Shown piece by piece: positions 3,183 to 57,235 of a stretch of DNA of 59,586 nucleotides; within the stretch, counting starts at the first letter, position 1; the number at the start of each line of letters is the position of its first letter. The notes beneath the pieces were generated by a model that was not told the DNA's origin, searched no databases, and saw only the letters and a program-made list of their open reading frames with translations. The position numbers and the translations under genes were made by a program. The stretch is taken from positions 1 to 59,586 of IMG/VR virus record IMGVR_UViG_3300026536_000001; one strand, written 5' to 3'. The DNA comes from a virus. Lineage: Duplodnaviria; Caudoviricetes.

Positions 3183-3346
3183 CTCGCCTTCGTCTCGTTT
3201 CGTCACAAAGCGTTCCACTTCGCATCGGATCTCGAATTCGTCTCGCAACAAACCACGGCACTACGCCTCGCCCCACTACGCTTCTCGGATTCGTCTCGCC
3301 TCGCAACACGCCACACCACATCGCAGCGAGACACGACGCGACTTCA
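3183..3346 (-). ncRNA. YG-NNN guide cassette, 3 units, all matching gene 3344-4315
   Basis: handles at 3183, 3231, 3284, 3337; decode to LFQSSFM, LKTGYLPY, LLNATIRD. Confidence 0.85.
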
Positions 3347-4315
3347 CTCCGCGGGAAAGATCAGTACTCCTAATCCGGCATCGAACCCGATTCCTTTCTC
3401 TCCAGTCACACTCGCCAACCACTCATCATTGCGGATGGTCTCATTGACCAAATTCTTTTTGGCCTCGGCATCCAGCTTCGTCCGCCGCATTAAAAAAGTC
3501 ATGAAACTCGACTGGAAGAGCGCACGCTTGACTTCTCTCCCCTTATTTTGCTTGGCGAGTTCATCCAATCCATCTTTCGCGATCGCGTCATAGTCGGCCG
3601 CGACCACGGTTCCGGTTTGAATCTCGCCGTTCGGTGGGATGACCGCCGCCGATCCGCTATTGGGTGATGGAGCCTTCGACCCTGCTCCGGTCCTCGTGGG
3701 TATCGGCGTCTTCCCAGCGGGCTTTCCTTTCCTCTCATACCCAAATACGTGAATCTTCTTCACACCTAGTAGTGTCCTCTCCCGTGTGGCATCTCCGCCT
3801 TCCGGAGTGAAGCCTGTCTTCAGCCGCTCGACATCGAACTTGGTTCCTTCCAGATATGGCAGATAGCCGGTCTTCAACAATTCATCCTTGAAGCCTTTAT
3901 CGGCCAGACTATGAGCGAATTTTGCCCAGGCGCAGTTCTCATAAATCTTGATCGGTTGGTGGTTGGGATCGCCAAACACGGTGTTGCCCTCCGCCCCGAG
4001 GGCCGCCCCCATATCCTCGGCCTCGCTGTCTTCGGGTTTGGCCAGCTTCCCTGGACGCAAAATATCGAGGGTATTCTTCCTGCCGAACCCTAAATGTTCC
4101 AAAGCGGGTTCGTCGTCGATCCTCTCCAACGTGTTGGGATCTAATTTGTACAGCTCTAACCGCACCATACAGGCCGGATCGGTTTGCTCTCCGGTTTGAC
4201 TGTTCGGCGGAAATTGATACACGATACAACTGGCTTTTCCGATCTCCCAGGTTCCTTCCTGAGCCCCGAATCCTCCTTTAACGGTATCTTTACTCGATAG
4301 ACTGATCTTTGGCAT
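3344..4315 (-). CDS. hypothetical replication-region protein (possibly ssDNA-binding)
   Basis: true start probably MPKISLSS (ATG 4315, SD AAGGAGAG); function inferred from context only. Confidence 0.65.
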   Translation of the reverse strand: MPKISLSSKDTVKGGFGAQEGTWEIGKASCIVYQFPPNSQTGEQTDPACMVRLELYKLDPNTLERIDDEPALEHLGFGRKNTLDILRPGKLAKPEDSEAEDMGAALGAEGNTVFGDPNHQPIKIYENCAWAKFAHSLADKGFKDELLKTGYLPYLEGTKFDVERLKTGFTPEGGDATRERTLLGVKKIHVFGYERKGKPAGKTPIPTRTGAGSKAPSPNSGSAAVIPPNGEIQTGTVVAADYDAIAKDGLDELAKQNKGREVKRALFQSSFMTFLMRRTKLDAEAKKNLVNETIRNDEWLASVTGEKGIGFDAGLGVLIFPAE

Positions 4316-4577
4316 GAAACTCTCCTTTAGGTTGAATGTTGATGTGTAAAGCGAATCCGGCATGGGTGACCGGCTCATCGGCACCGCACTTGAAACAGAT
4401 GCCTCTTTCGCGAAGCAGGTTGGGTTCTTGGAAGGTACAACGCTCACCACACTGGGGACAGGTGAATTTGAAGTAGATGACGGCACACTCCGGACCACCG
4501 AATCGAGTGACGACATCATCGGCCCGCTTCAGGATTTCTTCGCGCGGCAGGTCGCCTTGACGCGGCTTGAAGTTCAT
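4290..4577 (-). CDS. zinc-ribbon protein
   Basis: CPQC..CFKC; SD AGGAG before MNFKP. Confidence 0.6.
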   Translation of the reverse strand: MNFKPRQGDLPREEILKRADDVVTRFGGPECAVIYFKFTCPQCGERCTFQEPNLLRERGICFKCGADEPVTHAGFALHINIQPKGEFHAKDQSIE

Positions 4578-4831: not shown

Positions 4832-6478
4832 TCATTCGTCCATTCCGAGGGCTTCGCGTTTGTCGAGGCTGTCATCATCGGCGATATCCTTCCGCGGCGT
4901 CCGTTCTGGCAGCTTCGTCAACGGCTTCGGTATCGCACTCACACTGAACACACTCTGGCTGAACCAACGCGGTGCCAGCTCCCGATTCTTTCCTAATAAC
5001 CACGATAAATGCGCGTCGGTGATAAACACCTCACACTGATCCGTCTCACTCCTCATCCCTCTCATGGTGGACTGGGCGAGTTCCTGTAAAGCTTCGGCAT
5101 TCATCCAATCCGGATCGTATCTGGTCTTGGCTTTAGCCAGCGGGGATTGGCTGGGCTGGAATGGCACCTTGGCCACAATAATAAACTCGCATTGACTAGC
5201 TGGGAAATCCCATCCGGTCCCGAACGACGGGGATACCAGGATCGCCGGTGCCGCGGCCTTCCTAAACTTATCCGCCGCTTCCGAAGCCGTGTCCGAGTCG
5301 GGATCGGTGGTATTCGCAATCATGAACCGGGCGTGCTGGGAATGCTGGAGCAAAAATTGTTGACGAGCGTAGGAGACCGTGTGGATCAATCCCTTCCGGT
5401 CCAATCTCGCGCCGATGATCTTATCGATATGCCGCACCCAGATGGCCAGCTCCTCCTCACTCGTCCTCCGATCCACTCTCACGGCCTTACCATTCGATCG
5501 CGGCGGGCAGAGATACACGGGCGAGCGTTCGGCCGGGAATATTCTCCCCCATTCCGTGAATTGTCCCTGGAGCCCGAGCTCCTCCAAGGTTCGTTTCTTG
5601 AGTGTCGCACTCATCAACACCACTCTCTGAACTCCCTGAATCAACAACCCGGTATATTTCTTAGGTGAGATCACATCCCAGGTCCAGGTCCTCCCGGCTG
5701 GCGTTGAGGCTTCGTACTCGAACACCCACTCCACTTTCGTCTTCCCCGGCAACGGCACCGGAAATCGCGCCAGCTTTTCCTCCAGCCTCTTCCAGCGTTT
5801 CAGCCGGTCTGTGCCTGTTGGAGTGAGGGCCCGGACACTGAGATCCTGAATGGCGATCCGGGCCAGTGGACGGATCTGAGCAACCCAGTGTTGCCAATCC
5901 GTGAGATTTCCGGTCTTGGGAGGAACCGTCACGATCCGCAACAAATGGAGTTCTCTATCGTCTATCGCGATCCTTAAATGATTGGCTAAATGTTTAACGG
6001 CATGAACCGCCTCATCCAGAATCAGCGTGTCGAAATTCCCGATCGCCTTGATCCCGGCCGCCAACCAATAACTGTAGTTCGACAACACCACAGGCGCGGC
6101 AGCAGCTTGTTGAACCGCGGCGACGTACCCCTCCGGGTTCGCACACCCACATCCCATCGGCCGTCCATCCTCACAGGTACGTGCCATGGGACACGGATAG
6201 TTCACCTGGCCTCGCACATCGACGAGATGATTGCGGAAGTCTTTGAGATATTGATCTTCTAAACCTTTCGTCGAAGTGAGAATCAGGGTTCGACCGGGCA
6301 GGCCGAGCTTCGCAATCGTCGCCGCCACCAGAGATTTCCCCGCTCCCGGCGGCAGTCCTAAACCCTGCACGGCGGAATCGCCGTATAAAGCCTGCTCGAC
6401 CGCTTCCAACTGCTCCGGCCGGTAGCTCTCATAGGAGAAACCGAGGTCTGCTGGCCGGAGGCCGTCCAGCGTGGTCAC
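4832..6478 (-). CDS. DinG/Rad3-like SF2 helicase
   Basis: YRPEQ Q-motif, PPGAGKS, ILDEAVH, MSATL, GWDFP, KVPF, RGMRSETD. Confidence 0.85.
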   Translation of the reverse strand: MTTLDGLRPADLGFSYESYRPEQLEAVEQALYGDSAVQGLGLPPGAGKSLVAATIAKLGLPGRTLILTSTKGLEDQYLKDFRNHLVDVRGQVNYPCPMARTCEDGRPMGCGCANPEGYVAAVQQAAAAPVVLSNYSYWLAAGIKAIGNFDTLILDEAVHAVKHLANHLRIAIDDRELHLLRIVTVPPKTGNLTDWQHWVAQIRPLARIAIQDLSVRALTPTGTDRLKRWKRLEEKLARFPVPLPGKTKVEWVFEYEASTPAGRTWTWDVISPKKYTGLLIQGVQRVVLMSATLKKRTLEELGLQGQFTEWGRIFPAERSPVYLCPPRSNGKAVRVDRRTSEEELAIWVRHIDKIIGARLDRKGLIHTVSYARQQFLLQHSQHARFMIANTTDPDSDTASEAADKFRKAAAPAILVSPSFGTGWDFPASQCEFIIVAKVPFQPSQSPLAKAKTRYDPDWMNAEALQELAQSTMRGMRSETDQCEVFITDAHLSWLLGKNRELAPRWFSQSVFSVSAIPKPLTKLPERTPRKDIADDDSLDKREALGMDE

Positions 6479-6548
6479 GATCTCGTCTCACGACACGGCA
6501 CCTCACCGCGCCCCAACACACGACGCTTCGCGGCGATTCTCGTCTTCG
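6476..6548 (-). ncRNA. YG-NNN guide cassette (1 unit) matching helicase N-terminus
   Basis: decodes to LDGLRPHDFGF vs resident LDGLRPADLGF. Confidence 0.85.
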
Positions 6549-17713: not shown

Positions 17714-18109
17714 TCACACCGTCCTCGTTCGACTTACAGCAGGCGGATAAAGCCACGTCACTCCGTCAGGTTTCGATAAATCCATATCCAGATGAATAAA
17801 GCTGAAGCCAATACCAACCCTTCTGAAACCTAACGCGATGGCATTTTCGACGATCACAAATCTTGTGTGACTATCCCTCGCTGTGATGTCAACTGCAAGG
17901 CCGTTTTCGTGCGAGGAGGAATCGACTCCTCCGACTTCTCGATTGTGTTCGGGTGTGCGATATCCACTACTGATGAAGAGTGGAAAGCCGCATTTGGACC
18001 GCAGCTCGTCGAGGAGCTTTACGAAATCGAGATTCATCTTCGAGCCGCTTCCAGGCGCATCTGGACTTGAGAATTCATCCGGTTGGAAATAGCGTATGCC
18101 TTCCCACAT
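17714..18109 (-). CDS. peptidase M15A-family endolysin
   Basis: SSGYRTPEHN..SSHENGLAVDI..FIHLD. Confidence 0.9.
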   Translation of the reverse strand: MWEGIRYFQPDEFSSPDAPGSGSKMNLDFVKLLDELRSKCGFPLFISSGYRTPEHNREVGGVDSSSHENGLAVDITARDSHTRFVIVENAIALGFRRVGIGFSFIHLDMDLSKPDGVTWLYPPAVSRTRTV

Positions 18110-18164: not shown

Positions 18165-18242
18165 CTCGGCTTCACCCCAGAACGGCTCGAAACGGCCCAC
18201 ATCGGCCCACATCGGCTCAGCGCGAAACGACCCTCGGCTTCA
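18165..18242 (-). ncRNA. YG-NNN guide cassette (1 unit, 12 triplets) matching endolysin
   Basis: decodes to GFRSMGMGFSFG vs resident GFRRVGIGFSFI. Confidence 0.85.
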
Positions 18243-20250: not shown

Positions 20251-20689
20251 TATCGGCTCCATTATCAGCGATATGAATAAGATCCTGGATAACTTGAAAG
20301 TACCCGCTTTGATGACCGTGAGCGAGTATCTCTTATCTATGGCGAAGCAACTGGAACGCGCGCAGAGGAATGACGATGTGGGCGAGTTCAAACGTCTGCT
20401 TCAGTCGGTTGAGAAGACTATCGCGGAGTTGTTGAAGTCCATCGATGGGGGAGAACCGGATGCCACACGCTGATCTCAGTCTCATTGTAAAAGACCTCCA
20501 GGAGTACGAACAGCAGCGCACTCAGATCGAAGTCTGCGGTATCTCCTCGGTCCAGCCCATCACCTGTATCGTTCTGAACGGCATCCCTCATTCCGGCGTG
20601 GCCACCCACGCCTGTACCAAGAGCCGCGATCACACGGGTCCAGAACTGTGCCAGTGCGCCTGCGGCTATAAGTGGCTGGGGAAGAAATA

Positions 20690-21415
20690 ATGCCCAAAGG
20701 TTCACCTCCCGGCCGCCCTTTCAAGAAAGGAGACATCCCGGCCACCAAAGGCAAGCACCAAGTCCGTGGCTATTATCCGGGAACCCGTAAGCAGCGGGAG
20801 AAGGCCCCGCCCCCTCCACCTCCGACCGAGGGTCAGATCATGGACTCCATCGTCCAGAAGTTGAAGGTCGCCGACTCTCCTCTCGCTGTGGCTTTCTCTT
20901 CGCTGGATGGCGGCTGGCGCAACTATATCCGGTACGTGATCCAGGCGGCAAAAGAGGGCGACACTGAGATGCAGCGGTTCATGAACGCGCTCAATGGTCT
21001 TTCCGCACGCGAACGGTTGACGGTCTCTCCCGAAGATGTCTGTGATATGGCTGGTGTAAGTGTGGAGGATCTGATCGGGGCGGTCCTGCCGTTAATTTGG
21101 CGCTACTCCCGCTTGAGAAGTTCCATCGTTGCGGCCACTCACGATCCGGTCGTCCTCCGAACCACAGCGGCGTATGCGATGCGTCCGGATAATCAGCACG
21201 ATCGCGAGATCTTCTTGAAGGCGACAGGAACATTGCCAATTCCGAAAGGCAGTGTGACGGCTATTTTTAATTCCGCTGGTTCTGGGCCTCCCCCTCCGAC
21301 CCCGGCAGGAATCCTTCCCCCGGTATCTTCAGACATTTCAGATATGGAAGCTCTCGACGATAAATTTTCAGCTAGCAACCCCCTTGACACATCATCCAGT
21401 TCGGATGAGAATTGA
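20690..21415 (+). CDS. probable terminase small subunit
   Basis: GRPFKKG N-terminus, directly upstream of terL; its stop TGA is the first base triplet of a guide handle. Confidence 0.55.
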   Translation: MPKGSPPGRPFKKGDIPATKGKHQVRGYYPGTRKQREKAPPPPPPTEGQIMDSIVQKLKVADSPLAVAFSSLDGGWRNYIRYVIQAAKEGDTEMQRFMNALNGLSARERLTVSPEDVCDMAGVSVEDLIGAVLPLIWRYSRLRSSIVAATHDPVVLRTTAAYAMRPDNQHDREIFLKATGTLPIPKGSVTAIFNSAGSGPPPPTPAGILPPVSSDISDMEALDDKFSASNPLDTSSSSDEN

Positions 21416-21530
21416 AGCCGAGAGGCGAAGCGCCGCGTGCCGTCGTGGGACGTAGTGACGTGAAGCGCCGTGAGCCGCGCTGGCGTGTTGTGCCGTGACG
21501 TGAACCGCAGTGGGGTGAGACGAATTCGAG
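21413..21530 (+). ncRNA. YG-NNN guide (20 triplets) complementary to a terL homologue
   Basis: decodes to LPWFVGNARLGFVYPEHGFL vs resident LPWFTGSARLGYIYPEQGFL. Confidence 0.9.
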
Positions 21531-21542
21531 TCCTGACCTGCG

Positions 21543-23696
21543 ATGTACAGCGAAAAAGTCACACAAGCCAAGATCGCGTTCGCGTTGAGGACCGGCTTCT
21601 TGAAAACGGAGCCGGTCTTCCACACCCGCAGCGAGTGTGATGCCGCAGTCTCCCACCTGAAGTCCAACTGGGACGAAGACTCACAGACCTGGAAGCGTGA
21701 GTTAACTCGCGAAGAGATCGCGTTTATAAAAAACGAAAGGTTTCTCTGTCGCGTCAGTTATAATTATTGGAAAACGCGGTACTGCTGGATCAAGTCCCGT
21801 GAAGATAAGCCCATCCGTTACACTCCATGGGTTAGTCAAACAATTCTGACAGACATATTTTCCGAGCACGAGATCGAAGGCATCGCGATCGAGTTACAGG
21901 CACTTAAGGCTCGACAGCTCGGAGTCTCCCGCGAAGTCTCTCTGGCGCAGCTCCATAGAGTTCAGTTCTTCAGTCACATCAACGCCATGATGGCTTCCTC
22001 TGCTCCAGCAAAGACGGCGAAACTCGGCGATATGTTAGCCTTCACGTTGGGTTATCAGCCGCACTGGTTACTGCCTCGTTTCGCTTTCGGCCCCCGTGAG
22101 CAAGCCCAGCACTTCGGCGGGGAGTGGTTCGAGCTAGAGACAGGCTCCTCACTCACACTCCAGTCCGGATCTCAAGTCACTGGTATCGCCCGCGGCACAA
22201 CCCCTACCGTTATTCATATTAGCGAGCTTGCCGAGTTCGAGTACCAAGGTCTCGGCCCCGAAGAAGTCATCGACTCATCTTTATTCCGCGCAGTCCATCC
22301 CTCCGCTCGTGTCTTCATGGTTCTGGAATCCACCGCACTAGGCCAGTTCAATTGGTGGCACAAGAAGTGGCTCTCCTCCAAGTCCGGCTGGCCGACACGC
22401 CGCTCCCGCCTGCGTCCGGTCTTCCTTCCATGGTTTACCGGAAGTGCGCGTTTGGGCTATATATACCCAGAACAAGGATTTTTGGACCGCTCTCCCGTCC
22501 CCGCCAACTACTCTCCCGCACTCTGGGCTCTCGAACACGCCAAGCGAGCCGAAGATTACGTCAAGTCGAACGATACTCTGCGGGCGTACATGGGAAGCAA
22601 CTGGACGATGCCTCGCGAACAAATCTGGTTCTACGAAGTCGAGCGCCAGCAAGCCGTTAACGAAAATCGCTTGAATAAATTTTTTCAAGAGATGCCAAGT
22701 AGTGATGACGAGGCTTTTCAAAGTACGAACGTCTCGGTCTTCTCCACTGAAACCATCACCGCGCACCGCGACCGCACCCGCGCTCCACTCGGCGTCTACG
22801 GCTTGATCGGCCCGGATATGTCCCCCCGCACGGTCCTCTTCTCCCGCGCTCACATCGATCCCAACTCTAAACCGATTGTGATCGATTATCCGTGGGGCGC
22901 TCACCCGCACCAATACGAACTGGTCCCTCTACGCTGGGACGGTTACGCGACCGATGACGGTTTAGACAAACTCTACATTTGGGAGATGCCCGAAGACGGC
23001 CAGATCTACGGCCTCGGTGTGGACACCGCCGACGGTATAGGTAAGGACCGCTCAACCATAGAGGTATTAAGAAAAGGCTCTCCTCTTCAACGGGCGGGTC
23101 AGTGTGCGGAGTTCGCCTCGGATAAGATCAACGCTTTGGACTTGACCCCATACATGATGGCTTTGGGAGCTCTCTTCAGTGTCAAAGACACGGATGGGAA
23201 TCGTCGTCAGTGCCGTGCGGCGATTGAATGCCGGGGCAAGGGTGATCTCTCCCAATTGGGCATGAGAATCGATGGCTGGAGAAATTTTCACCCTTGGCAA
23301 CGTATTGATTCTAAAACCATTTCTCCCGACAAAGTAAGCAAGTTAGGGGTATTTACAAACGAATGGTTTCGTCAATCGATTCAAGAATATCTGGTGAAAT
23401 TCCTTCGCGATGAAGAGGTTGAAATTCTCTCGCCGTTCCTTGTGAGTGAAATGCAGTCCCTTGAGTCTCGTGAGGACGTGCAGAGCTTCCGCGCGACATA
23501 CGGCGGCCACGATGACAGAGTGATGTCGCTCGGTTTTATCCTCATTTCGTTATATCAGTACGAGCCCAATCGTCCTGTTGCTGCACTGACACAGACGAAG
23601 CAATCGCGGGGGCAAGTTCGATTTGAACGCAAATACGCTTCCTGGCGACCCAACGATCAGGAGCGCCTGACTACTTTAGATGACGCCAGCGTATGA
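21543..23696 (+). CDS. terL: terminase large subunit
   Basis: LKARQLGVS Walker A, HISE Walker B, LESTA, GVDTADG and HDDRVM RNase H-like motifs. Confidence 0.92.
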   Translation: MYSEKVTQAKIAFALRTGFLKTEPVFHTRSECDAAVSHLKSNWDEDSQTWKRELTREEIAFIKNERFLCRVSYNYWKTRYCWIKSREDKPIRYTPWVSQTILTDIFSEHEIEGIAIELQALKARQLGVSREVSLAQLHRVQFFSHINAMMASSAPAKTAKLGDMLAFTLGYQPHWLLPRFAFGPREQAQHFGGEWFELETGSSLTLQSGSQVTGIARGTTPTVIHISELAEFEYQGLGPEEVIDSSLFRAVHPSARVFMVLESTALGQFNWWHKKWLSSKSGWPTRRSRLRPVFLPWFTGSARLGYIYPEQGFLDRSPVPANYSPALWALEHAKRAEDYVKSNDTLRAYMGSNWTMPREQIWFYEVERQQAVNENRLNKFFQEMPSSDDEAFQSTNVSVFSTETITAHRDRTRAPLGVYGLIGPDMSPRTVLFSRAHIDPNSKPIVIDYPWGAHPHQYELVPLRWDGYATDDGLDKLYIWEMPEDGQIYGLGVDTADGIGKDRSTIEVLRKGSPLQRAGQCAEFASDKINALDLTPYMMALGALFSVKDTDGNRRQCRAAIECRGKGDLSQLGMRIDGWRNFHPWQRIDSKTISPDKVSKLGVFTNEWFRQSIQEYLVKFLRDEEVEILSPFLVSEMQSLESREDVQSFRATYGGHDDRVMSLGFILISLYQYEPNRPVAALTQTKQSRGQVRFERKYASWRPNDQERLTTLDDASV

Positions 23697-23917
23697 ACGA
23701 AAAGGTCTTTCAATCCAGTCACTTGCAACGCGGCGTTTACGATCCGGCGACGGGGAACCTAGAGATCGAGTTCGTCAATGGTCAACGCTATACTTACGAG
23801 GGCGTGCCGCAAGAGAAATGGGAGGCCCTGACACGAGCGGTATCCCCCGGAAAGTTCTTGCATAACTGGATCAAAGGATCGCATAATTCTCGACCGATGG
23901 GCACCTCTGAGACCTGA
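23693..23917 (+). CDS. KTSC domain protein
   Basis: YDPATGNLEIEFVNGQRYTYEGVP..SPGKF..IKG. Confidence 0.9.
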   Translation: MNEKVFQSSHLQRGVYDPATGNLEIEFVNGQRYTYEGVPQEKWEALTRAVSPGKFLHNWIKGSHNSRPMGTSET

Positions 23918-24035
23918 AGCCGAGGCTCGATTTGGAGCGTGTCGCGACGGGTTGAAGCGGGGTGAGACGAATCCGAGTAGCGATGTGTAGCGTAGCGAGG
24001 CGTCGTGGTTTGATCTGGCCTGCGGTGAAGCCGAG
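23915..24035 (+). ncRNA. YG-NNN guide cassette, 2 units (terL sense; portal antisense)
   Basis: decode to AIECRGKG and RAITDLYYIY. Confidence 0.9.
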
Positions 24036-24052
24036 TAGCGGAGGACTGAGGG

Positions 24053-24724
24053 GTGCCCGTCGTAGACTACCGCTGTTCCAGTTGCTTCAGAGATGACTCT
24101 CATTATTATCCGTTAGCCTCGTTTCCATACCCCGAGGTTATCCAGTGCCCATTTTGCGCTTCGCAGTCCGAACGCAACTACATGGCCGGTTCTCCATCAG
24201 TCGGTTTTTCTCCTATAGTCATACATATCCGAAAAGATACTGGTGAAGTCTCGATCCCAGGCCGAGTGGATGATCCGGTTGAAAAAGGCTACGAACGAGT
24301 CGAAATACGAGACTTTAGAGCCTATGAAAAATTCCGCCGTCACGTCGAGTCTGTTGAGAAAGAGAAGTCGCAGTTCTTCATGGAAGCGTCGAATGCTTTC
24401 TTTGATGATGTCCGGCGCGAACATCGCCAATCCCAACGTACTCGTATCGAACAAGCCATCCGTCAAGGAGGCTATGAAGCCACCTATATCGATGAAGACG
24501 GCAACGAAAAGAAGCGATGGGCCCCTATAACCCAACGTGCTCGGTTCCTCTTCGATCTCGCGTGTAAGTATACGGACCGTACTCGTGATGAGCGCCGTAA
24601 GAAGCTGGCATCTGGCTCCCCCAACTTCCACTCCCGCGCCCTCGAACACAGGTCCTCTGAGGCTAGTGTCGTTTCGGGTGAAGCCAAACGCGCCTCCCTC
24701 TTCTTCCGCAAGGGCAAGCCGTGA
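24053..24724 (+). CDS. FmdB-like zinc-ribbon protein
   Basis: MPVVDYRCSSC..CPFC. Confidence 0.7.
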   Translation: MPVVDYRCSSCFRDDSHYYPLASFPYPEVIQCPFCASQSERNYMAGSPSVGFSPIVIHIRKDTGEVSIPGRVDDPVEKGYERVEIRDFRAYEKFRRHVESVEKEKSQFFMEASNAFFDDVRREHRQSQRTRIEQAIRQGGYEATYIDEDGNEKKRWAPITQRARFLFDLACKYTDRTRDERRKKLASGSPNFHSRALEHRSSEASVVSGEAKRASLFFRKGKP

Positions 24725-26793
24725 GATCCGACACCGGTAATTTTTACTTGGCCCCACCGATACTCAACCAGGATGGCGAGACTCCCACTACTGACGAACT
24801 CCTCGGCTGGACAAAAGAGTTCCGTCAACAAGCGCAGTCATACCTAAGGCTGCAACCAGCGCACCCGTACATCCAAGATGGTCTCGACCTCATCAACGGA
24901 GACTTCGCTAAATCGACCGTCTCGACTCTCTCCAACGCCCGCACCGACTTGACCGTACGTAACGAAAAAGAACTGATCGCCGCTCAGACCAACCTCCGCA
25001 TCATCCCGGCCATCACCACCTCCATCGAAGCCTTCAAAGAGCAAGGCGTTTTATTAGATAAAAGTTGGATGTGGTGGCAGCAGAAAACCTTCGCCGATCG
25101 CGTGATCCGTCAAGCCTGGCAGAACGCCGTGGCTTTGGGCACCGGCTACTGTTCGATCGGCTACGACCCGGACTACTACTGTGCTGGTAAAGGCGAGATC
25201 GCCCTCCGTTCTCATGGCCCTCTCGATATCCTCCCGATCGGCCTCCCGCACGACCACAGTATCCAAAAGGCATATGCGGTCGCCATCAAAGTCCCCACGC
25301 CCTACCACCAAGTCATCGAAATGTTCCCGGACTTCCGCGATCAGATCCGCCCCACCACCGAGATGAAGGGCCGCGGCACCGTCATGGCCCAATCGGTCAA
25401 GTTCGCTTCGGCCGTCCTCAAACGTTTCGGTCCGACCGCGATTCAGGAACGCGAGCCGATGCCGTGGGCGATGACGGATTTATTTTACATTTATATCGAC
25501 GACCGCACCGTCAACCGCACCGGCAAAACCATCGCCATGGGCGACCCCCACACCTCCTGGGAGTACTTCGTCCCTTCTGTCGGCGATCTGATCGAGACCG
25601 GCCGCGACGACGAAGGCAAGTCCGTTTACAAACAAGCGACTCCGGAAGACTGCCGCTTCTATCCGAACCGCCGCCGGATCATCTGCACCGATAATTTAAT
25701 CCTCACTCCCGACCCGACTCTCCAGGTCAACCCGGCCTGGCACGGCAAGGTCCCCGTCGTTCAATTCCGCGCCGATGACTGGCCTTGGATGTTTCTCGGT
25801 TTCCCCCTCTCCAAAGCCGGAATGCTGCTGGAAAAAGCCAATACCGAGCTCCTGCGCGGCATCGTCGATATGATGAACGTGCGCCTCTCCCCACCGACCG
25901 GCTACGATCGTAACACCATGGCCCGCTCCCTAGCCGAAACCATCAATCTGCGCGTCCCCAACCAACGCCTCGGCCTCGATTACGGCCTGGGTGGCGACCA
26001 ATTCAAACCCCTCCTCCCGGTCGAGTTCCTGAACGTCCCCTCCAACATCCCGGAATTGATCACTCAAAACGAAGCCCGTCAGACGCACTACATGGGAGTG
26101 GCCGACGCTTCGGCCCTGACCCGTGCCCGCCAGCTCCCGGCCGGAGATTCCACCGACCGCTTATTAGAAGCCCTCGGTCCTCTGGTTAAAGATATGTCCC
26201 GGAACATGGAGCTCTCGGTCACCGGGATTGGCGAGATGTGGGTTCCGCTCGTGTTTCAGTGGTGGAAGGCGGGGAAGCGTTTCCAGATCTTTGGTGAAGA
26301 CGGACTCGTTGAAGAGGATATCGATTTCAACCCCGGTTCTCTGGTCCCTCAGGACGTTCTCTCTCTCCCCAAACACTCCTCCTACTTTGAACGCGCCCGG
26401 AAACATTGCGCTCATTTCCACTATGCGATCGAGCCGTACAGCCTGCACGAACTCAATTCGATGACACGGAAGATGGCCTTCCTCCAGCTTTCCCGCTCCG
26501 GCTTCCCGATTTCCTGGAAGACCCTAGCCCGAGTATGGGATGTCAAGAACTTCGACTTCGACCCCAAAGATACCGATCCGTCCAGCCCGAATTTCGGCAA
26601 GAGCCTCCAGGGAGAGTTCCCGATCTGGCTGGCCCAACAAGAGATTATGGCTCGAATCGCAATGGCCACGGGAGGCGGAGGCGGTAAAGGGAAAGGTCCT
26701 CAAGGACGTCCTCCTACGGGTCAGCAGCCGCCTTCTTTGGAGCAAAAAGGCGGGTTTGGTGGGCGCTCCACCATCCGCGAATCCAGGAGGTAG
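24721..26793 (+). CDS. portal protein
   Basis: 690 aa after terL; LGTGY..GYD, HGKVPVV motifs typical of podophage portals. Confidence 0.8.
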   Translation: MRSDTGNFYLAPPILNQDGETPTTDELLGWTKEFRQQAQSYLRLQPAHPYIQDGLDLINGDFAKSTVSTLSNARTDLTVRNEKELIAAQTNLRIIPAITTSIEAFKEQGVLLDKSWMWWQQKTFADRVIRQAWQNAVALGTGYCSIGYDPDYYCAGKGEIALRSHGPLDILPIGLPHDHSIQKAYAVAIKVPTPYHQVIEMFPDFRDQIRPTTEMKGRGTVMAQSVKFASAVLKRFGPTAIQEREPMPWAMTDLFYIYIDDRTVNRTGKTIAMGDPHTSWEYFVPSVGDLIETGRDDEGKSVYKQATPEDCRFYPNRRRIICTDNLILTPDPTLQVNPAWHGKVPVVQFRADDWPWMFLGFPLSKAGMLLEKANTELLRGIVDMMNVRLSPPTGYDRNTMARSLAETINLRVPNQRLGLDYGLGGDQFKPLLPVEFLNVPSNIPELITQNEARQTHYMGVADASALTRARQLPAGDSTDRLLEALGPLVKDMSRNMELSVTGIGEMWVPLVFQWWKAGKRFQIFGEDGLVEEDIDFNPGSLVPQDVLSLPKHSSYFERARKHCAHFHYAIEPYSLHELNSMTRKMAFLQLSRSGFPISWKTLARVWDVKNFDFDPKDTDPSSPNFGKSLQGEFPIWLAQQEIMARIAMATGGGGGKGKGPQGRPPTGQQPPSLEQKGGFGGRSTIRESRR

Positions 26794-27105: not shown

Positions 27106-27279
27106 GGAGGTGAGCGATGCCCGCCCAACGATTCACCAAAAAAGCGAACACGCCGAAACGTCGTCGGCAATGGCAGCACGTTTATGACTCTGCCCTCCGC
27201 CGCGGGGCTTCCGAAGGCTCCGCGATTGCTCAAGCCTCCGGAGTGATTAAAAGATCTCGCCGTCGAGGGGGGCGCTCCC

Positions 27280-27516
27280 GTGGCCGCCGATAACGGAACC
27301 GCCAACACCGGCAATACCGGCAGCGTCGCCAACACCACCTTGGTCGTCCACCACCCCGTCGCCGACCTGGACCGCCTCCTCGCCGAGATTCACCGTATCC
27401 AGTTCACGGGTTCGATCACCCTCAATTTCTCGCAAGGCTCCCCCTCTGGCACGGTTGAGGTGAAACAAAAGGTTCAGGCCAGCTTTTTCGAGATTTCCGG
27501 CTTCTTGAACGGGTAA
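27280..27516 (+). CDS. hypothetical protein
   Basis: FTGSITLNFSQG motif. Confidence 0.5.
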   Translation: MAADNGTANTGNTGSVANTTLVVHHPVADLDRLLAEIHRIQFTGSITLNFSQGSPSGTVEVKQKVQASFFEISGFLNG

Positions 27517-27661
27517 GGCTGGTTTGATAAAATAAGAATCATTGAAAATTTCCCCTTGACATTCCCATCTCCTCAATCCTACCTTTTCCCATTGTACGAG
27601 TTGGGAACTTGAAGGATCGTTCTTAGAGAGAACATCGGCCCTTTAAGAACGGTATCCGCAG

Positions 27662-27708
27662 AAAGCCCATTCCTGTGAGTCGCGTGCTCACCGGGATGGG
27701 CTTTTTTA
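27662..27708 (+). terminator. Rho-independent terminator-like hairpin
   Basis: AAAGCCCAT(T)CC..GGATGGGCTTTTTT. Confidence 0.7.
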
Positions 27709-27977
27709 TTTCCCATTTCGTAGCGATCCCCAGTACCGATAGCCCACCGGCTGTCGGGGAAAGGAGGCTCCCATGATCGGTCATTTTGAGTACGCCGAGC
27801 GCGGGCGTCGTCGAGGGCGTCGGCGCGGCCGGAAGCGGTAGGTTCCTGTCCGTGTCAGTTGTCCGGGACCGTTCTTCCCGGACTGTTGTGAGGGAGAGGG
27901 GCCCGGTTCCCACCCATCAGGTTCCAGTCTCCTCTCCTTCGTTCATTCTTCTTTATTCTTTTTCGCTGGAGTATTCG

Positions 27978-28086: not shown

Positions 28087-28395
28087 ATGGCGGTCGAGAC
28101 CCCATCCACGCCGGACCCTCAATCCGGAGCGTATGGTGGTGTGCGGCAAATGACCGGTGACGATGGTATGGCCGGTGCGTCTCCATCTCCAGTCCAAGCC
28201 GATCCGGCACAGATGCTCGCCGGAGTCACGTCTCAACTTCGACAAGCCGACCAAGCCGTTAGCGAGATTGCCCGTGCTTTTCCGCAGGCTGCTGCCGAGG
28301 CCAGACGCGCGCGTTCGGCACTACGTTCGCTGCTTCAGAAAGTTGTCAGCGAACCCGGAGGAGGCGCTCCTGCCGCGCCTGTAGGTGAGGTATGA
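28087..28395 (+). CDS. hypothetical protein
   Basis: SD AGAGG, head-gene region. Confidence 0.6.
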   Translation: MAVETPSTPDPQSGAYGGVRQMTGDDGMAGASPSPVQADPAQMLAGVTSQLRQADQAVSEIARAFPQAAAEARRARSALRSLLQKVVSEPGGGAPAAPVGEV

Positions 28396-28442
28396 AAGGT
28401 TTGAGTCGCGAGCGGCCCCATCGGTCAGGGCCGCCCTTGGAA

Positions 28443-28578
28443 CACGATCTCACATCGCGACACGACAACTCACGGCGTTTCACGACAACGCGCGCCACGA
28501 CACCGCACGACGATACGCTTCTCGGATTCGTCTCGCATCAACTCATCTCGCCACGACCCGGGTCGGCCCTCGTATTCA
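28443..28578 (-). ncRNA. YG-NNN guide cassette, 2 units, antisense to the late operon
   Basis: one unit decodes to IDELGFERADREYF vs scaffold IDELGLEGADKDYF. Confidence 0.85.
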
Positions 28579-28598
28579 GTATCGGGATCGCGATCCAC

Positions 28599-28627
28599 AT
28601 TGTATCCCAACGCGCCGGTCTCAACAA
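28599..28627 (-). promoter_or_regulatory. putative antisense promoter TTGTTG-N17-TACAAT for guide cassette
   Basis: located ~20 nt upstream of first handle on minus strand. Confidence 0.45.
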
Positions 28628-28675
28628 CCCTAAATCCGCTGGTTATCAACCAAGAACGGATGGAGGACTGAGGTT

Positions 28676-29659
28676 ATGCCTGTAGACACCAAAAGAGTTC
28701 AAGAATTGATCGATGAGTTAGGTCTCGAAGGCGCGGACAAAGACTATTTCGCCCGCGTTCTCACCACCAATGAGAAGGCGGGCGTTGCTTTTACCGGGCA
28801 GAGAGAGAGGCACGATAGGTTTACGCAGAAGACTCAAGAACTCTCTCAGAAAGAGAAAGAGTTGGAACAACGTGCCAATCAGCGCGACTTGGAGTTAGCG
28901 CAACAGTTAAACGCGGCGGAGGATCGCATCCGCAAAATCATGGCCGACTATGAGACTTCCGAGATCTCTCGTACTAAAGCAGAGACACTTCTTCGCCGTG
29001 TCAAAGAGATTTACAATTTGAGTGACGAAGACATACCGAAGCTCTCCGAGCCTCCCAAGCCCAAAGACACTCCTCCTCTCGACATCGACAAGAAGTTCAG
29101 CGAGTTCAAGGACACACTCCTCAAGGAACTGGCTCCCAACTTCCGCGCCCTCCCTCGAATCAACGTCATTCAGGCAGAGATTTTTGAGAGGCACCGCGAG
29201 CTTACCGGCAAGCGTCTCACCCAGCGCGAAATGGAAGAACTGATGGCCGAATCCATGAAAGACAACGGTCCGACTCTCATGGAAGCTTGGCGCGAAAAAT
29301 ACAAGATCGCCGATATCGAGAAGAAGAAGGAACGCGAGGAGTGGTCCAAAGAGGACCGGCAGAAGTGGGAAGACGAACAGAAAGCCAAGAACAGCGAAGA
29401 AGCGATGCGGCAAGTCCGCTCCACTCCCGACGGCCGCACTCAACACCTCTCTCCGGTCTTCCGCGAATACAAACGGCACGAAGACGGCACCTTCGCTTCT
29501 CAGCAAGCTCCGGATAAGGACAAGAACCGTCCGGCCGACAGAGTACCGGCAGTGCAGAATGGACAGAAGTTGAGCGGAGCCGAACGAGCGGCGAAGAGCT
29601 TCATCGAAAGAAGACAGGCGGGAGTGCCTCTGGGGAAAGAGGCTGTTGGGAAAACCTAG
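28676..29659 (+). CDS. capsid scaffolding protein
   Basis: charged coiled coil (FTQKTQELSQ) upstream of MCP. Confidence 0.7.
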   Translation: MPVDTKRVQELIDELGLEGADKDYFARVLTTNEKAGVAFTGQRERHDRFTQKTQELSQKEKELEQRANQRDLELAQQLNAAEDRIRKIMADYETSEISRTKAETLLRRVKEIYNLSDEDIPKLSEPPKPKDTPPLDIDKKFSEFKDTLLKELAPNFRALPRINVIQAEIFERHRELTGKRLTQREMEELMAESMKDNGPTLMEAWREKYKIADIEKKKEREEWSKEDRQKWEDEQKAKNSEEAMRQVRSTPDGRTQHLSPVFREYKRHEDGTFASQQAPDKDKNRPADRVPAVQNGQKLSGAERAAKSFIERRQAGVPLGKEAVGKT

Positions 29660-50017: not shown

Positions 50018-50405
50018 CGTCTCCGGAGCACGTCTAGGATAGAGGTTCCAAATAGGTCCGCAATCCAGCCCGCGATAAATAGAAGAACCATGAGTAGAAC
50101 CCAACCTACAAATAAAGCTGCTGCAATCGTTACGATCACTCGACTTCACCTCACTTCATCCATAACCCTATTTGCGGTGGCCGGACTCGATACCGGCTGG
50201 TGGCGCTTCCGCTGGCAATGATTCGGATTTCTTAATCGCCGTATCAAGGAGCCTCTCTTCGGCGAAACGCCAGTCTGGACCCTTTAACCCTGTCCGGTAC
50301 TCCGGTTACCTGCTCCTAACGGTTTGCGCTCACTCTCCATTCGCTCCCCCTACTGCTAGAGGGACCTCGCTAGGTCTGTGTGTCCTGTCCACACCGCACC
50401 GCAAA

Positions 50406-50640
50406 CTCGACTTCATCTCACCACATTCCGGCTCGCCGCAAAACTCGGCTTCGTTTCAGCTCGTCGCAAACCACTACACACCAAGACGATTCTCGAATTC
50501 GTCTCGCTTCGTGACAACTCGTAACACCGCAATGCGATTCTCGGATTCGTCTCGTTCCAGATCGTCTCGCCTCACGTCGCCACAAATCACCACTCGGCTT
50601 CGTCTCGTCTCGACTCGGCTCACATCGCCGCTCGGCTTCA
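50406..50640 (-). ncRNA. YG-NNN guide cassette, 5 units
   Basis: handles 50406, 50444, 50492, 50540, 50593, 50631. Confidence 0.85.
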
Positions 50641-51015
50641 CACGGTCATGGCCGGTATCGTCGGCAACGGGATCTCCGGATCAGGCTTCTCCTCCGGCTG
50701 CAAGATTGAACCCAGGTCCGCAATGGTCGCCACATGCCGGACGGTATTTCCGCGGATCAGTAGCAAACCACCGCAATGAAAACAGTTCGCCCAGTTTCCC
50801 GTCGCTGCAATCGGGTTCAACTGGGTCTCCCGGACATCGTGATTGGCTCGAACATGGACCGGCGACGGCTTCCGGGTTTGAGGCTTCCCCTTCCGGAGAG
50901 AACCCGCTTGATTCGCGTGCCAGCGTTCATGTGCGGCCAACCCTCTTATATCTATTGGTTTAGCGCAGATCGAACACGGCACTCGACGCATTATTATTTT
51001 TGTTTTTGCCTTCAT
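50638..51015 (-). CDS. C2H2 zinc-finger protein
   Basis: CSIC..HERWH; CFHC. Confidence 0.6.
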   Translation of the reverse strand: MKAKTKIIMRRVPCSICAKPIDIRGLAAHERWHANQAGSLRKGKPQTRKPSPVHVRANHDVRETQLNPIAATGNWANCFHCGGLLLIRGNTVRHVATIADLGSILQPEEKPDPEIPLPTIPAMTV

Positions 51016-53673: not shown

Positions 53674-54394
53674 GATCCTCCTCACGAACCCCGAAATAGC
53701 CGAGCCGCTCCCGTTCTTCCTCAAGCGCGACCGCTAATTGCAGAGTCACATCCGCGTCTCTTACAGCGTATTCGACGGCCTCCTCTTCCGGCACCCAGCC
53801 AATCCCCTTCTCCGGGAGATCCAAATCCAACCCCCACTGCTGTTCAATCTCCTTTAACCGGCTCTCTATGTCGTAATCCGGACTCTTCATCCCAAATTTA
53901 AAAATGCGTTCCAAAGTCCTGTAGGCGATACTGGGTTTCTCGACCACCTTGACGGCTCCGCGGCGGGTTTCCTTCCACTCCAGATCCGGAGTCAAGGCCG
54001 CTTCCATCAGCAGCTCCGACAGTCTTTCCAACAGCTTTTCCCTGGAGGCGGCCCCCACGAGATCCGACCAATCTTGCATCCGGACACCGAACAGGCGGTA
54101 GCCGAGAACCTTGAGACTCTGAGGCAACCCCAGATGATATGACTCCTGAAGTGTGTCTCGATAACGTCCATGATATCGAACGCCGATGAGATCCATAACC
54201 GGCAGGTCGGCCGGAGCGTGATGGAAGACCAAAATAGCACCGCTGTCGAGCCTTGAATTGAGCAAATCCACCAAAACGGCCACTGCCTCCGTGTCGGACA
54301 TTCGAACCAAGATTCCTGTTCCCGGCCGCAGCGACACTTGGATACTGAACGGCGCCCCGGCGTGACTTTCGGTATCTATGCCGATCAAGTCCAT
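53663..54394 (-). CDS. 3'-5' proofreading exonuclease domain (split from polA)
   Basis: IGIDTE (ExoI), FHHAPADL (ExoII), YAVRDA (ExoIII). Confidence 0.85.
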   Translation of the reverse strand: MDLIGIDTESHAGAPFSIQVSLRPGTGILVRMSDTEAVAVLVDLLNSRLDSGAILVFHHAPADLPVMDLIGVRYHGRYRDTLQESYHLGLPQSLKVLGYRLFGVRMQDWSDLVGAASREKLLERLSELLMEAALTPDLEWKETRRGAVKVVEKPSIAYRTLERIFKFGMKSPDYDIESRLKEIEQQWGLDLDLPEKGIGWVPEEEAVEYAVRDADVTLQLAVALEEERERLGYFGVREEDHDR

Positions 54395-57231: not shown

Positions 57232-57235
57232 AGCT

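Follow-up and report, generated by a model that had tools for sequence, protein, structure and literature searches.

A putative VIPR-type guide RNA gene beside a phage terL, and its possible action on competing phages

A run of 20 consecutive pentamers lies directly upstream of the gene for the terminase large subunit (terL) in a phage known from soil metagenomes only. An initial annotation had read these units as a guide that decodes to a rival allele of terL, from which the carrier had escaped by recoding its own copy. This raises the question of what the array is, how it is read and on whose terL it would act. The whole stretch of 59,586 nucleotides (the window) was analyzed together with related loci. 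The repeat is probably a non-canonical VIPR-type guide RNA gene that most likely acts on the terL of competing phages, a reading to which we give a probability of roughly 0.55.

The array and its setting

The array consists of NNN-YG units flanked by 8-nt delimiters, and lies among the following features:

21384-21412 (+): promoter-like site TTGACA-17-GAGAAT just 5' of the array, a weak lead only
21415-21422 (+): 5' delimiter AAGCCGAG, which shares its first base with the end of the TGA stop (21413-21415) of ORF 20672-21415
21423-21522 (+): guide array, vrRNA-like, 20 pentamers N1N2-N3-Y-G, last unit AGACG
21523-21530 (+): 3' delimiter AATTCGAG
21543-23696 (+): terL, terminase large subunit, 717 aa
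22424-22483 (+): terL site matched by the 20-unit guide, which runs antisense to the gene; agreement at 33/40 read and 4/20 skipped positions; peptide LPWFTGSARLGYIYPEQGFL
23220-23246 (+): terL site AIECRGKGD, matched by the next array
23925-23969 (+): 9-unit array 3' of terL, same sense; 16/18 read positions at 23220-23246

The array first annotated at 21413-21530 is real, but that span takes in the stop codon and both delimiters, and the matched patch of terL begins one base earlier than had been placed. The TGA-AGNCGAG overlap recurs at several other first delimiters in the genome. Predicted folding of 21423-21522 was no better than that of shuffles (z -0.05), giving no RNA structure, and promoter-like sites in 20600-24200 numbered 2 against 1.7 expected from shuffles. 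Aligned over 85% of its length (E 5e-61), the terL product shares 28.9% of its residues with the TerL annotated in Tunturiibacter phage Tunturi_1; it has no Pfam match and no named PHROG match. The array sequence before terL is identical in contigs from four further soil runs that cover it, which possibly represent one sampling campaign; none of the runs containing this stretch is listed as RNA.

The window holds 39 delimiter-flanked arrays of 4-20 units each, 328 units in total, in all of which Y-G at positions 4-5 is built into the definition used by the array detector. The 8-nt delimiter, consensus AAKNCGAG, is the sole gap between adjacent arrays, and AGACG is the final unit in 18 of the 39. 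The commonest base accounts for just 43% and 44% at unit positions 1 and 2, while position 3 is G in 52-54% and another base in 46%. Each unit is thus a pentamer of two hypervariable bases and a conserved trinucleotide; since the scaffold order is (N)-Y-G and not G-G-Y, it represents a consensus related to, rather than identical with, the canonical VIPR motif. Arrays are scattered over the genome, and at 14 sites compared with adjacent genes 13 share the strand of the gene, the exception being 28451-28568. Seven guides, two of them those at terL, match a gene within 1.5 kb at 82-89% of read positions. The other five are:

3239-3283 (-): 9-unit array after gene 3344-4519 (-); 3852-3878, 16/18; 7 inner units 14/14
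6484-6538 (-): 11-unit array in the leader of the helicase-like gene 4832-6478 (-); codons 3-13 (6438-6470), 19/22
18173-18232 (-): 12-unit array before the peptidase M15 gene 17714-18109 (-); 17795-17830, 20/24, same sense
23978-24027 (+): 10-unit array; 25464-25493 in the portal-like gene 24721-26793 (weak portal PHROG match), 17/20
28451-28520 (-): 14-unit array; site 28708-28749 in the opposite-strand gene 28676-29659 (+), 23/28

The kind of element is not new, guide arrays like these being already in print as VIPR (Viral Interference Programmable Repeat). A small RAMP-like protein with pentamer-repeat guides is described in four 2026 preprints, from the accessible portions of which all statements about VIPR here are taken. 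Each unit contributes two bases to pairing with DNA, and the wobble base of the codon is passed over (10.64898/2026.04.26.720920); biochemistry and cryo-EM of canonical VIPR show the same alternation of two bases read and one skipped (10.64898/2026.04.26.720927; 10.64898/2026.04.26.720920). VIPR silences, works on either strand and has competing phages and satellites as its natural aims, and its authors call targets at a cut of 80% (10.64898/2026.04.26.720920). For the guides studied there, no own-contig match of at least 80% is given, which is a property of the studied VIPR clades and not a formal definition of the family (10.64898/2026.04.26.720920). All three scaffold positions are conserved in canonical VIPR; other architectures exist, such as staggered arrays in which the end of one vrRNA is the start of the next, and VIPR has been suggested to be a precursor of CRISPR and a minimal programmable DNA binder.

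Reading code and the match in terL

The code was derived from this genome alone, ahead of comparison with the VIPR literature, by trying three variable dinucleotide offsets with four skip lengths on the phage's own genome. Reading N1N2 with a 1-nt skip placed 9 of the 26 arrays of at least 8 units at 80% or more on the own genome, with a summed -log10E of 31.9 as against 5.5, 5.3 and 1.5 for skips of 0, 2 and 3 nt; this rule is by far the best fit here. At all seven significant array-gene sites the skip falls on the codon wobble, five guides being antisense and two same-sense to the gene, and in none of the seven was the observed score reached by any of 200 shuffled guides. The arrays therefore appear to follow the VIPR target rule of two bases plus a 1-nt skip.

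For the guide before terL, comparison of the joined and reverse-complemented triplets with both strands of the whole window places the best ungapped match at 22424-22483, with 37/60 nt identical (60 unit-order shuffles: mean 32.5, maximum 35). Agreement by codon position is 16/20, 17/20 and 4/20, so 16 of the 20 wobble positions differ from the resident gene, as originally reported. The decoded peptide matches resident terL at 14/19 residues by tblastn (E 3.5e-9), or 15/20 with the partial last codon, while the lowest E values from five shuffles of unit order across all 39 arrays lay between 0.002 and 0.07; the claim that the guide decodes to a terL-like, non-resident coding sequence is thereby confirmed. 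When only the first two bases of each unit are used, the score in terL is 33/40 (binomial E 4e-9 over both strands), and none of 200 shuffled terL guides exceeded 27. The guide thus appears to read a segment coding for LPWF..G....G..YPE.GF.

The codon usage of this patch had been called conspicuously A/T-ending. Just 7/20 of its codons end in G/C, compared with 61.5% across terL, but equally low content occurs in 43 of the 698 20-codon windows of the gene, and the patch stands at the 2.7th percentile genome-wide, making it only weakly distinctive. The seven matched resident patches have codon-usage percentiles of 0.04, 0.47, 0.08, 0.46, 0.42, 0.49 and 0.04 and are not systematically odd. Escape by synonymous wobble recoding, as first proposed, is not supported by the published code, in which the wobble goes unread. 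The resident still matches at 33/40 read positions, above the 80% cut.

The third base of each unit carries information of another sort. Across the seven pairs it agrees with the resident wobble at 26/85 positions, about chance. In split-box codons it keeps the resident amino acid in 27 of 32 cases (null 18.8, sd 2.4, P 0.0003), with the base itself identical in just 10/32, and in four-fold boxes the purine/pyrimidine class is retained in just 15/29. By these counts the third bases act like those of synonymous codons in a foreign allele. In antisense guides 75% of units have G at N3, where gene wobble composition predicts 35%, an excess that points to a scaffold preference at N3; in the two same-sense guides it is not G-rich (26% of 19 units).

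Partner protein and alleles in related phages

A candidate for the protein that would act with these guides is encoded beside the largest group of arrays, near the right end of the window:

56200-56460 (-): 86-aa ORF that may encode an accessory protein; in 6 of 38 related loci a homologue immediately follows the Vipr-like gene
56496-57221 (-): main cluster, some 16 arrays, immediately 3' of the Vipr-like gene
57236-57937 (-): candidate Vipr-like partner, 233 aa, with an invariant C-terminal glycine-rich motif (G209, H212, G213, Y214, G216, E217, R218)
59006-59285 (-): 6 clustered arrays, 5' of the ERCC4-domain gene 58229-58990 (-)

Homologues of the 233-aa protein were found at 36 IMG/VR loci, in 35 of which at least two same-strand arrays lie within 3 kb downstream; the one exception has just 212 bases downstream. 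With an E cutoff of 1e-3 the family comprises 271 members, of which the 120 listed carry neither a Pfam family nor a named function, and the nearest Atlas clusters are 93-100% viral. Comparison by hhalign with the SUSP1 Vipr family gave a weak match (P 0.022, 0.035 and 0.038; probability 1.3-2.2%), colinear over 126-140 columns with the glycine loop included, and the profile drew a single irrelevant match from PDB sequences (E 0.88). The TerL relatives G001-G003 have neither a 233-aa homologue (0/5 records, the own-genome positive control being matched) nor delimited arrays.

The notion of a rival terL allele is borne out in part. It is favored by the third-base signature and by relative L001, whose wobble bases agree with the guide's third bases at 14/20 positions where the resident agrees at 4/20, a score reached by just 5 of 693 in-frame windows (P about 0.007). 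No perfect rival allele was found, and the expectation of a near-perfect decoded sequence in the terL of relatives was not borne out in the sequences searched: no carrier of the decoded peptide appeared in a search of 5.8 billion proteins, the best of 11 TerL relatives reaching 16/20. Read-position scores are 34/40 for G002, 33/40 for the resident and 30/40 for G001; G002, a VIPR-less relative, is no better a match than the resident, and among the sequences searched no rival allele lies above 85% of read positions or is clearly better than the resident. Two of the resident's seven read-position mismatches in 40 are Leu CTN-to-TTG family switches, decoded CTC standing against resident TTG at both. 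Resident T5 and I13 are absent from the 6 other long-form TerL relatives of the protein search, and the guide sides with the majority at both positions. The short-form relatives L005 and L006 share the T at position 5. These mismatches and residues may reflect escape, with which they are compatible without proving it. At the second terL site, the Arg of AIECRGKGD is resident-specific among 8 TerL sequences, and here the guide 23925-23969 carries the Arg state.

A related locus, L280, carries a 10-unit guide directly 3' of its own Vipr-like gene. Compared with the Vipr-like genes of the 36 loci, this guide scores 20/20 in 6 and 19/20 in 9 more, and 17/20 in the gene beside it, which encodes the same motif, HGYAGERSDG, with other codon families for Arg and Ser. 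To judge from these alignments, L280 would be a precedent within the same family for a guide that adjoins a poorer-matching own gene and is perfect in the genes of other phages.

Whose genes are read, and the place of the system among known ones

In the reading we favor, N1N2 of each pentamer would provide the specificity, and N3-Y-G a scaffold of three bases. The array would be expressed as RNA and bound by its likely partner, the 233-aa glycine-loop protein, which, by analogy with published Vipr, would place one protomer on each unit and present N1N2. On double-stranded DNA the complex would read two of every three bases, leaving the codon wobble unread, and would silence transcription of its target as VIPR does. 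Its purpose would be action on the terL of related, competing phages, whose allele would be the natural target, and the seven mismatches would protect the resident gene. As the guide adjoins the carrier's own differing terL (7/40 read positions), guide and tolerated allele would be inherited together. Against this explanation stand the lack, among the sequences searched, of a rival allele clearly better matched than the resident, the best match of 6 of 7 guides lying in the own genome, the seven own-contig matches above 80%, the weak hhalign match of the 233-aa protein to the SUSP1 Vipr family, and the ordinary codon usage of most resident patches. Target sites, with conservation percentiles of 39, 94 and 61 within their genes, are also not consistently in the most conserved parts. 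Moreover, the guides 23925-23969 and 3239-3283 are perfect on the resident at the read positions of their inner units (16/16 in the eight units before the constant last unit, and 14/14, respectively), and these two would therefore bind the phage's own genes under the published code.

Binding of that sort is what self-regulation would require, with a guide from the neighboring transcript and the Vipr-like protein occupying the DNA of the guide's own gene to damp or time its transcription, which at terL and the late operon would amount to negative feedback. We consider this doubtful. All seven matches do lie 14-1437 bases from the guide, 6 of the 7 guides find their best match in the own genome when the three complete relatives G001-G003 are compared, one of the two perfect guides bears the resident-specific Arg state, the helicase guide sits in the leader of its gene and matches codons 3-13, and published VIPR silences on either strand (10.64898/2026.04.26.720920). 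Yet five of the seven guides carry 11-18% mismatches at read positions, the third-base signature is that of a diverged allele and not of the resident, and the sites, found 8 to 1677 nt into the genes, show no preference for the promoter-proximal part; L280, with the same layout, is perfect on other phages' genes and poorer on its own.

The paradox of the two perfect guides would vanish under a contiguous-triplet code, since the resident wobble matches at just 2/8 and 2/7 of their units. Here Y-G alone would be scaffold, all three variable bases would pair without a skip, the true targets would be foreign alleles matched three in three, and the resident would be protected mainly by its synonymous wobble differences. 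N3 is indeed variable (G 54%, others 46%) where all canonical scaffold positions are conserved, acts as a real third codon base with 14/20 agreement to the L001 wobble, and lacks G enrichment in the two same-sense guides. We nevertheless hold such a code unlikely: the published mechanism reads two bases and skips one (10.64898/2026.04.26.720927; 10.64898/2026.04.26.720920), the excess of G at N3 in antisense guides suggests scaffold preference, and no three-in-three target was found among the sequences searched. Furthermore, the L280 own gene has codon-family switches at read positions, which would be needless under a triplet code because wobble mismatches would already protect it.

Least probable is that the array is an inactive remnant, a decayed solo guide, or else a leader with no targeting role, which as a TRAP-like cis-regulator would only recruit the oligomeric protein to the mRNA, with the terL match a fossil. 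TRAP-type sites consist of a constant triplet and a 2-nt spacer, and so resemble the array in their period of 5; a read-position match of only 82.5% in the resident, and of 34/40 in G002, also speaks for a remnant. The perfect Y-G of all 20 units, the two intact delimiters and the identical array in the further soil runs, possibly of one campaign, argue against decay, as do the third bases, which would have decayed in an old and unselected array.

CRISPR-Cas was considered as a known system and rejected, as the delimiter is 8 nt compared with direct repeats of about 24-40 nt, the 'spacers' are pentamer-periodic and no CRISPR-type repeat was seen; among 20 window proteins scanned with Pfam none belonged to a Cas family, and Rfam gave nothing at gathering scores. 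The Cas7 backbone of Class 1 CRISPR (Cascade, Csm, Cmr) shares with the proposed complex an oligomeric RAMP filament on a guide with periodic unpaired positions, but its period is 6 (5 positions paired, 1 flipped on both strands), and it belongs to repeat-spacer arrays with Cas1-Cas2 acquisition. Free-standing phage homing endonucleases, whose resident target site is resistant, resemble the proposal in selfish action on a rival's allele of a nearby essential gene and in close linkage of the agent to a tolerated resident allele. They differ in that a protein recognizes and cleaves, while recognition here would be RNA-guided, and published VIPR of this simple kind is described as silencing and not cutting.

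The closest described relative is the type II VIPR of Escherichia phage SUSP1, where canonical YNNGG runs were confirmed beside agp038 and agp039. Both are encoded by phages and consist of pentamers in tandem, each containing two hypervariable bases (10.64898/2026.04.26.720920; 10.64898/2026.04.26.720927). In both, targets on one strand or the other are matched two bases in three with the wobble skipped, and arrays adjoin the gene of a small protein with a glycine-rich loop at its end. The scaffold is N3-Y-G rather than G-G-Y; 8-nt delimiters and often an AGACG end stand in place of a ~40-nt 3' tail with pseudoknot; arrays have 4-20 units against 9-16 and are scattered genome-wide; the protein has 233 aa against 195 (profile match P 0.02-0.04); and seven guides match their own contig at 82.5-89%, where the VIPR study reports none at 80% or above. 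VIPR-like arrays detected with a genomic language model share period 5 and a fixed trinucleotide other than GGY, with the motifs GAC/NN, CAC/NN, WGT/NN and TGH/NN beside proteins of Vipr-like fold; (N)YG/NN with AAKNCGAG delimiters is not among the motif examples in the available text, which mentions neither genome-wide scatter nor self-matching (10.64898/2026.10.21.760802). Solo or orphan vrRNAs are described from satellites and VIPR-null phages, some aimed at the vipr genes of relatives, with self-match scores below rival scores, so that autoimmunity is avoided (10.64898/2026.10.15.759431). The guides studied here share their location away from the vipr gene, and L280 shows the same lower self-match than rival match; unlike published solo vrRNAs, as far as the accessible text describes them, they occur in a phage that keeps its own protein gene, and they adjoin the carrier's own target homologue (terL, portal-like, helicase-like).

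A further proposal, which we regard as tentative and rather improbable, is that linked cassettes of guide plus tolerated allele at terL, the portal-like gene, the helicase-like gene and four others constitute an RNA-guided allele drive with guides copied from rivals. Each guide would silence the rival's version of the neighboring essential gene in mixed infections, sparing those recombinants that take guide and allele together; as the third letter would keep the skipped base of the target, guides would have been copied three bases at a time from rival coding sequence. If true, this would be the first trace of templated guide acquisition for VIPR, for which the accessible text of the four preprints describes no adaptation machinery. 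To that literature, as available, the present genome adds an (N)YG/NN scaffold, 8-nt delimiters and a protein family far from SUSP1 Vipr in sequence. It also adds solo guides throughout a VIPR-positive genome, beside near-matching targets of its own, which bears on how self-targeting is avoided or used, and a variable scaffold base that records the target wobble and provides a handle on guide origin. Were the third base read, the family would contain a second, contiguous-triplet code.

Anatomy and decoding of the array before terL

The intergenic gap in front of terL is filled by a delimited array of pentamers of the form N1N2-N3-Y-G, laid out as follows.

Features of the terL array
21423-21522, + strand: pentamer array of 20 perfect NNN-YG units, lying after the TGA stop of ORF 20672-21415 and ahead of the terL start
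AAGCCGAG and AATTCGAG: delimiters at the two ends of the array
21543-23696, + strand: terL, terminase large subunit, 717 aa, by homology to annotated TerL

The virus record is complete (59,586 bases, with direct terminal repeats). The terL product had no named match in Pfam or PHROGs; it is 28.9% identical, across 85% of its length, to the TerL annotated in Tunturiibacter phage Tunturi_1 (E 5e-61). Several arrays have a first delimiter that starts inside a TGA (TGA-AGNCGAG; at 3341, 16663, 18232, 21415, 23917-23924, 50630 and 51652). For the terL array, comparison with the listed ORFs showed the TGA to be the stop codon of ORF 20672-21415; the array therefore begins where the upstream gene ends. 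No RNA structure was predicted for the array (z −0.05), and Rfam returned no match. The stretch 21300-25600 was found in 20 rows of soil-metagenome DNA runs from 16 studies, 12 of which rows may be the source of the window itself, and no RNA run was among the 20. Contigs from four runs outside those 12, possibly from one sampling campaign, showed no differing letters where they covered this stretch; being identical and of low depth, they carry no information on co-variation of guide and target.

The initial annotation had decoded the array, by reverse-complementing and joining its triplets, into a terL-like sequence, and this was right in substance. The best match of the joined triplets in the entire window is 22424-22483, inside terL, with 37/60 identical bases, while 60 unit shuffles of the guide averaged 32.5 and reached at most 35. 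As peptides, guide and terL agree at 14 of 19 residues (E 3.5e-9, the best of the shuffled arrays attaining only E 0.002), and the match to terL stands on both counts. Identity by codon position is 16/20, 17/20 and 4/20.

The first three arrays that matched nearby genes did so in one shared codon register, with mismatches at the wobble position, and peptide searches added further array-gene matches, in two of which array and gene share the same sense. When only N1N2 was scored, seven arrays reached E below 0.005 on their own genome, agreeing at 82.5-89% of read positions with genes at distances of 14 to 1437 bases; no shuffled guide out of 200 attained any of the seven scores. Reading N1N2 and skipping one base scored 31.9, compared with 5.5, 5.3 and 1.5 for skips of 0, 2 and 3, offsets that take in the constant Y-G being inflated by low complexity and thus uninformative. 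Among units of antisense guides, 75% have G as their third base, vs 26% of 19 same-sense units; the wobble composition of the genes, for comparison, is 35% C and 29% G, and these figures decide neither for nor against a third base that is read.

The rule derived in this way is that of Viral Interference Programmable Repeats (VIPR). In the accessible part of the published description, a small RAMP-like Vipr protein works with guide RNAs (vrRNAs) of 9-16 YNNGG units, in which NN pairs with double-stranded DNA and one base, generally at wobble, is skipped; sites on either strand are read, a PAM is unnecessary, the outcome is transcription silencing, and the natural targets are competing phages and satellites (10.64898/2026.04.26.720920). 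The same part names the alternative units NNNGG, YNNNG and NNNNG (10.64898/2026.04.26.720920), and a structure of the filament, likewise seen in part, accompanies it (10.64898/2026.04.26.720927). We consider the terL element to be a VIPR-type guide array, with a probability of about 0.9; if it is a guide, the two-in-three code is most likely how it is read.

Arrays across the window and a candidate partner protein

Runs of at least four YG pentamers number 89 on the two strands of the window, and 39 of them, with 328 units together, have a delimiter-like 8-mer (AAKNCGAG) on at least one side. The delimited arrays lie in intergenic gaps, singly or clustered, on the same strand as the adjacent genes in 13 of 14 sites checked. 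AGACG is the final unit in 18 of the 39, and G occupies the third unit position in 52-54%.

Array clusters and associated genes
56496-57221, − strand: cluster of delimited YG pentamer runs
59006-59285, − strand: cluster of delimited YG pentamer runs
50414-50630, − strand: cluster of delimited YG pentamer runs
3191-3341, − strand: cluster of delimited YG pentamer runs
57236-57937, − strand: 233-aa ORF immediately upstream of the largest array cluster, its C terminus bearing an invariant glycine-rich motif; candidate Vipr-like partner
56200-56460, − strand: 86-aa ORF with relatives directly after the Vipr-like gene in 6 of 38 loci

The idea that all arrays are antisense coding copies in one register was rejected, as 289 codons held 6 stops vs 5.5 expected; most cluster arrays are therefore without a detectable coding match in the window. 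Long open frames of 176-299 aa run opposite the clusters (56359-57258, 56609-57283, 58805-59335 and 50172-50963, all +); these resemble by-products of array composition and might be annotated as genes in error. A 97-aa ORF (28392-28685, +) overlaps − strand arrays at 28451-28568 and, together with two ORFs on the − strand (27247-27576 and 27623-27913), hints at a small divergent unit within the structural gene block. A 158-aa ORF (54385-54861, −), with weak HNH, His-Me endonuclease and HTH matches (E 0.001-0.02, all under Pfam cut-offs), may be a free-standing homing endonuclease amid replication genes.

Relatives of the 233-aa protein number 271 (E 1e-3 or better), and the 120 of these listed all lack a Pfam family and any name other than "hypothetical"; the protein's own cluster occurs on 18 contigs, and its nearest Atlas clusters are 93-100% viral. 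At least two same-strand arrays lie within 3 kb downstream of the relative's gene in 35 of 36 IMG/VR loci, some of which resemble copies of each other (L257/L258, L275/L276, L255/L282), and the lone exception has just 212 bases left downstream. An ERCC4-domain nuclease gene (58229-58990, −) separates an array cluster from the Vipr-like gene, and its relatives stand beside Vipr-like genes in none of 38 loci. The VIPR locus of SUSP1, an Escherichia phage with a published type II system, was located and contains YNNGG runs. Profile comparison of the 233-aa family with the SUSP1 Vipr was colinear, glycine loop included, and weak (P 0.022-0.038, probability 1.3-2.2%). A tblastn search of GenBank phages with the 233-aa protein returned just two records at E 0.3, and a scan of genome contigs 2 loci, both in metagenome-assembled genomes. 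Of the arrays that follow the Vipr-like gene in the window, the first (57167-57221, −) agrees with the Vipr-like gene of another IMG/VR locus, L265 (at about 10354), at 18 of 22 read positions, which is non-significant (E 0.16).

A scan of IMG/VR for four YG units, AGACG and the delimiter gave 7 single matches, a chance-like yield. The same pattern hit at least 117 loci on metagenome contigs; among the matches listed, 112 loci had one minimal run, 4 had two and 1 had three. This pattern proved too narrow, since relatives have delimiters of the ACGYCGAG type. Scanning IMG/VR for 14 YG units revealed many other period-5 arrays, long and of high complexity, whose fixed trinucleotides differ.

Further period-5 arrays from the IMG/VR scan
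NN-GCG arrays: loci L033, L050, L080, L081, L104, L118, L123
NN-GTG arrays: loci L065, L074, L077, L100, L125, L127
TGT-NN arrays: loci L043, L069, L078

In L065 and L125 the flanking genes are on the other strand from the arrays, which sit immediately ahead of start codons. Inside their own loci the three types matched no gene clearly; a single own-locus match in L081 (E 5e-5) may be array-to-array. These are probably other non-canonical VIPR-like types, and the available part of a recent report describes non-canonical trinucleotide arrays adjoining Vipr-like folds (10.64898/2026.10.21.760802).

Whose terL the guide reads

Eight TerL relatives with 41-70% identity were found in IMG/VR, none with arrays near terL; the three complete ones (G001-G003) had neither delimited arrays nor the 233-aa protein in searches whose own-genome control matched. 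At read positions the terL guide agrees with G002 at 34/40, with the resident gene at 33/40, with G001 at 30/40 and with G003 at 24/40. A protein search restricted to the patch gave 11 relatives, agreeing with the decoded peptide at 16/20 at best, and no perfect target is known among these and the IMG/VR TerL relatives compared. When all window guides were run against 2.2 Mb of locus sequence, relatives were matched by the terL guide only, and an alignment-based TerL scan of IMG/VR gave no contig beyond two already known.

Over the seven pairs of arrays and matched nearby genes, codon positions 1-2 agree in 61 of 80 codons. Where the codon box is split, the third base keeps the resident's amino acid at 27 of 32 (null 18.8, sd 2.4, P 0.0003) and is identical to the resident's at 10 of 32; in four-fold boxes the purine/pyrimidine class agrees at 15 of 29. 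On sequence comparison, this pattern is the mark of homologous coding sequence, not of base pairing. The terL guide's third bases agree with the wobble bases of one relative, L001, at 14/20 (as high in 5 of 693 in-frame windows), with those of L002 at 9/20 and with the resident's at 4/20 (as low in 133 of 693). At the read positions that distinguish guide from resident, it is often the resident that departs from the other relatives: two of its Leu codons are TTG where relatives with Leu use CTN, and its T5 and I13 occur in none of the six other long-form patches from the protein search, the short-form L005 and L006 having T at position 5. Since the third base keeps the amino acid and fits L001 wobble, and the resident departs from its relatives, the guide's content points to a non-resident allele. 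This much of the proposed rival terL allele survives, and we regard such an allele as only somewhat likelier than the phage's own gene to be the natural target.

A further report describes, in its available part, solo vrRNAs as well as guides directed at the vipr genes of rivals, for which self-match is lower (10.64898/2026.10.15.759431). The family of the 233-aa protein offers a precedent in the IMG/VR locus L280, where a 10-unit guide (3995-4044) directly after the Vipr-like gene matches the glycine-loop coding sequence of Vipr-like genes in other phages, with 20/20 for six of the 36 loci (L254, L257, L258, L262, L267, L268), 19/20 for 9 further loci and 17/20 for its own gene (3898-3927). 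That own gene codes for an identical HGYAGERSDG motif, its Arg and Ser codons being drawn from other families; its changes are codon-family switches, not wobble changes. Own-locus matches at E below 0.01 were obtained for 3 of 168 arrays across the 36 loci, two of them in L280, and given this rarity the scattered self-matching guides of the window are unusual.

Self-matching guides and placement within VIPR

The initial annotation had held that the carrier escapes its guide by synonymous wobble recoding and that codon usage in the resident patch is conspicuous. G/C-ending codons make up 7 of 20 there vs 61.5% in terL, a signal that is weak, as 43 of 698 terL windows are equally poor. Codon scores of the seven resident patches ranged over percentiles 0.04 to 0.49 with no consistent signal, and conservation of the target sites showed no consistent preference. 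Leu/Arg/Ser family switches, counted by hand, fall at 6 of 14 conserved six-fold positions vs about 3.9 expected from usage, a possible excess that is suggestive only. Escape at wobble is unsupported unless the N3-Y-G family reads all three bases.

Two guides are at odds with the preferred reading. The guide at 23925-23969 matches resident 23220-23243 perfectly at read positions, as does that at 3239-3283 with resident 3855-3875, and the former has the Arg state where seven of seven TerL relatives have Lys. With the published code, these guides would bind the phage's own genes. Such binding may be tolerated or used, as in self-regulation, or guides this short may be ineffective. A third explanation is that the third base is also read in the N3-Y-G family, in which case the wobble differences of the resident would protect it, as initially proposed. 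All three explanations remain for these two guides, and for the terL guide the two-in-three code is still preferred.

Scattered self-matching guides are not reported in the portions of the VIPR literature covered, whose supplements may list the motif, the protein family or such guides. The kind of element found before terL is already in print; as far as those portions go, what seems to be new is the scaffold, the protein family, the genome-wide placement of guides beside near-matching genes of their own phage, and a "fossil" third base.
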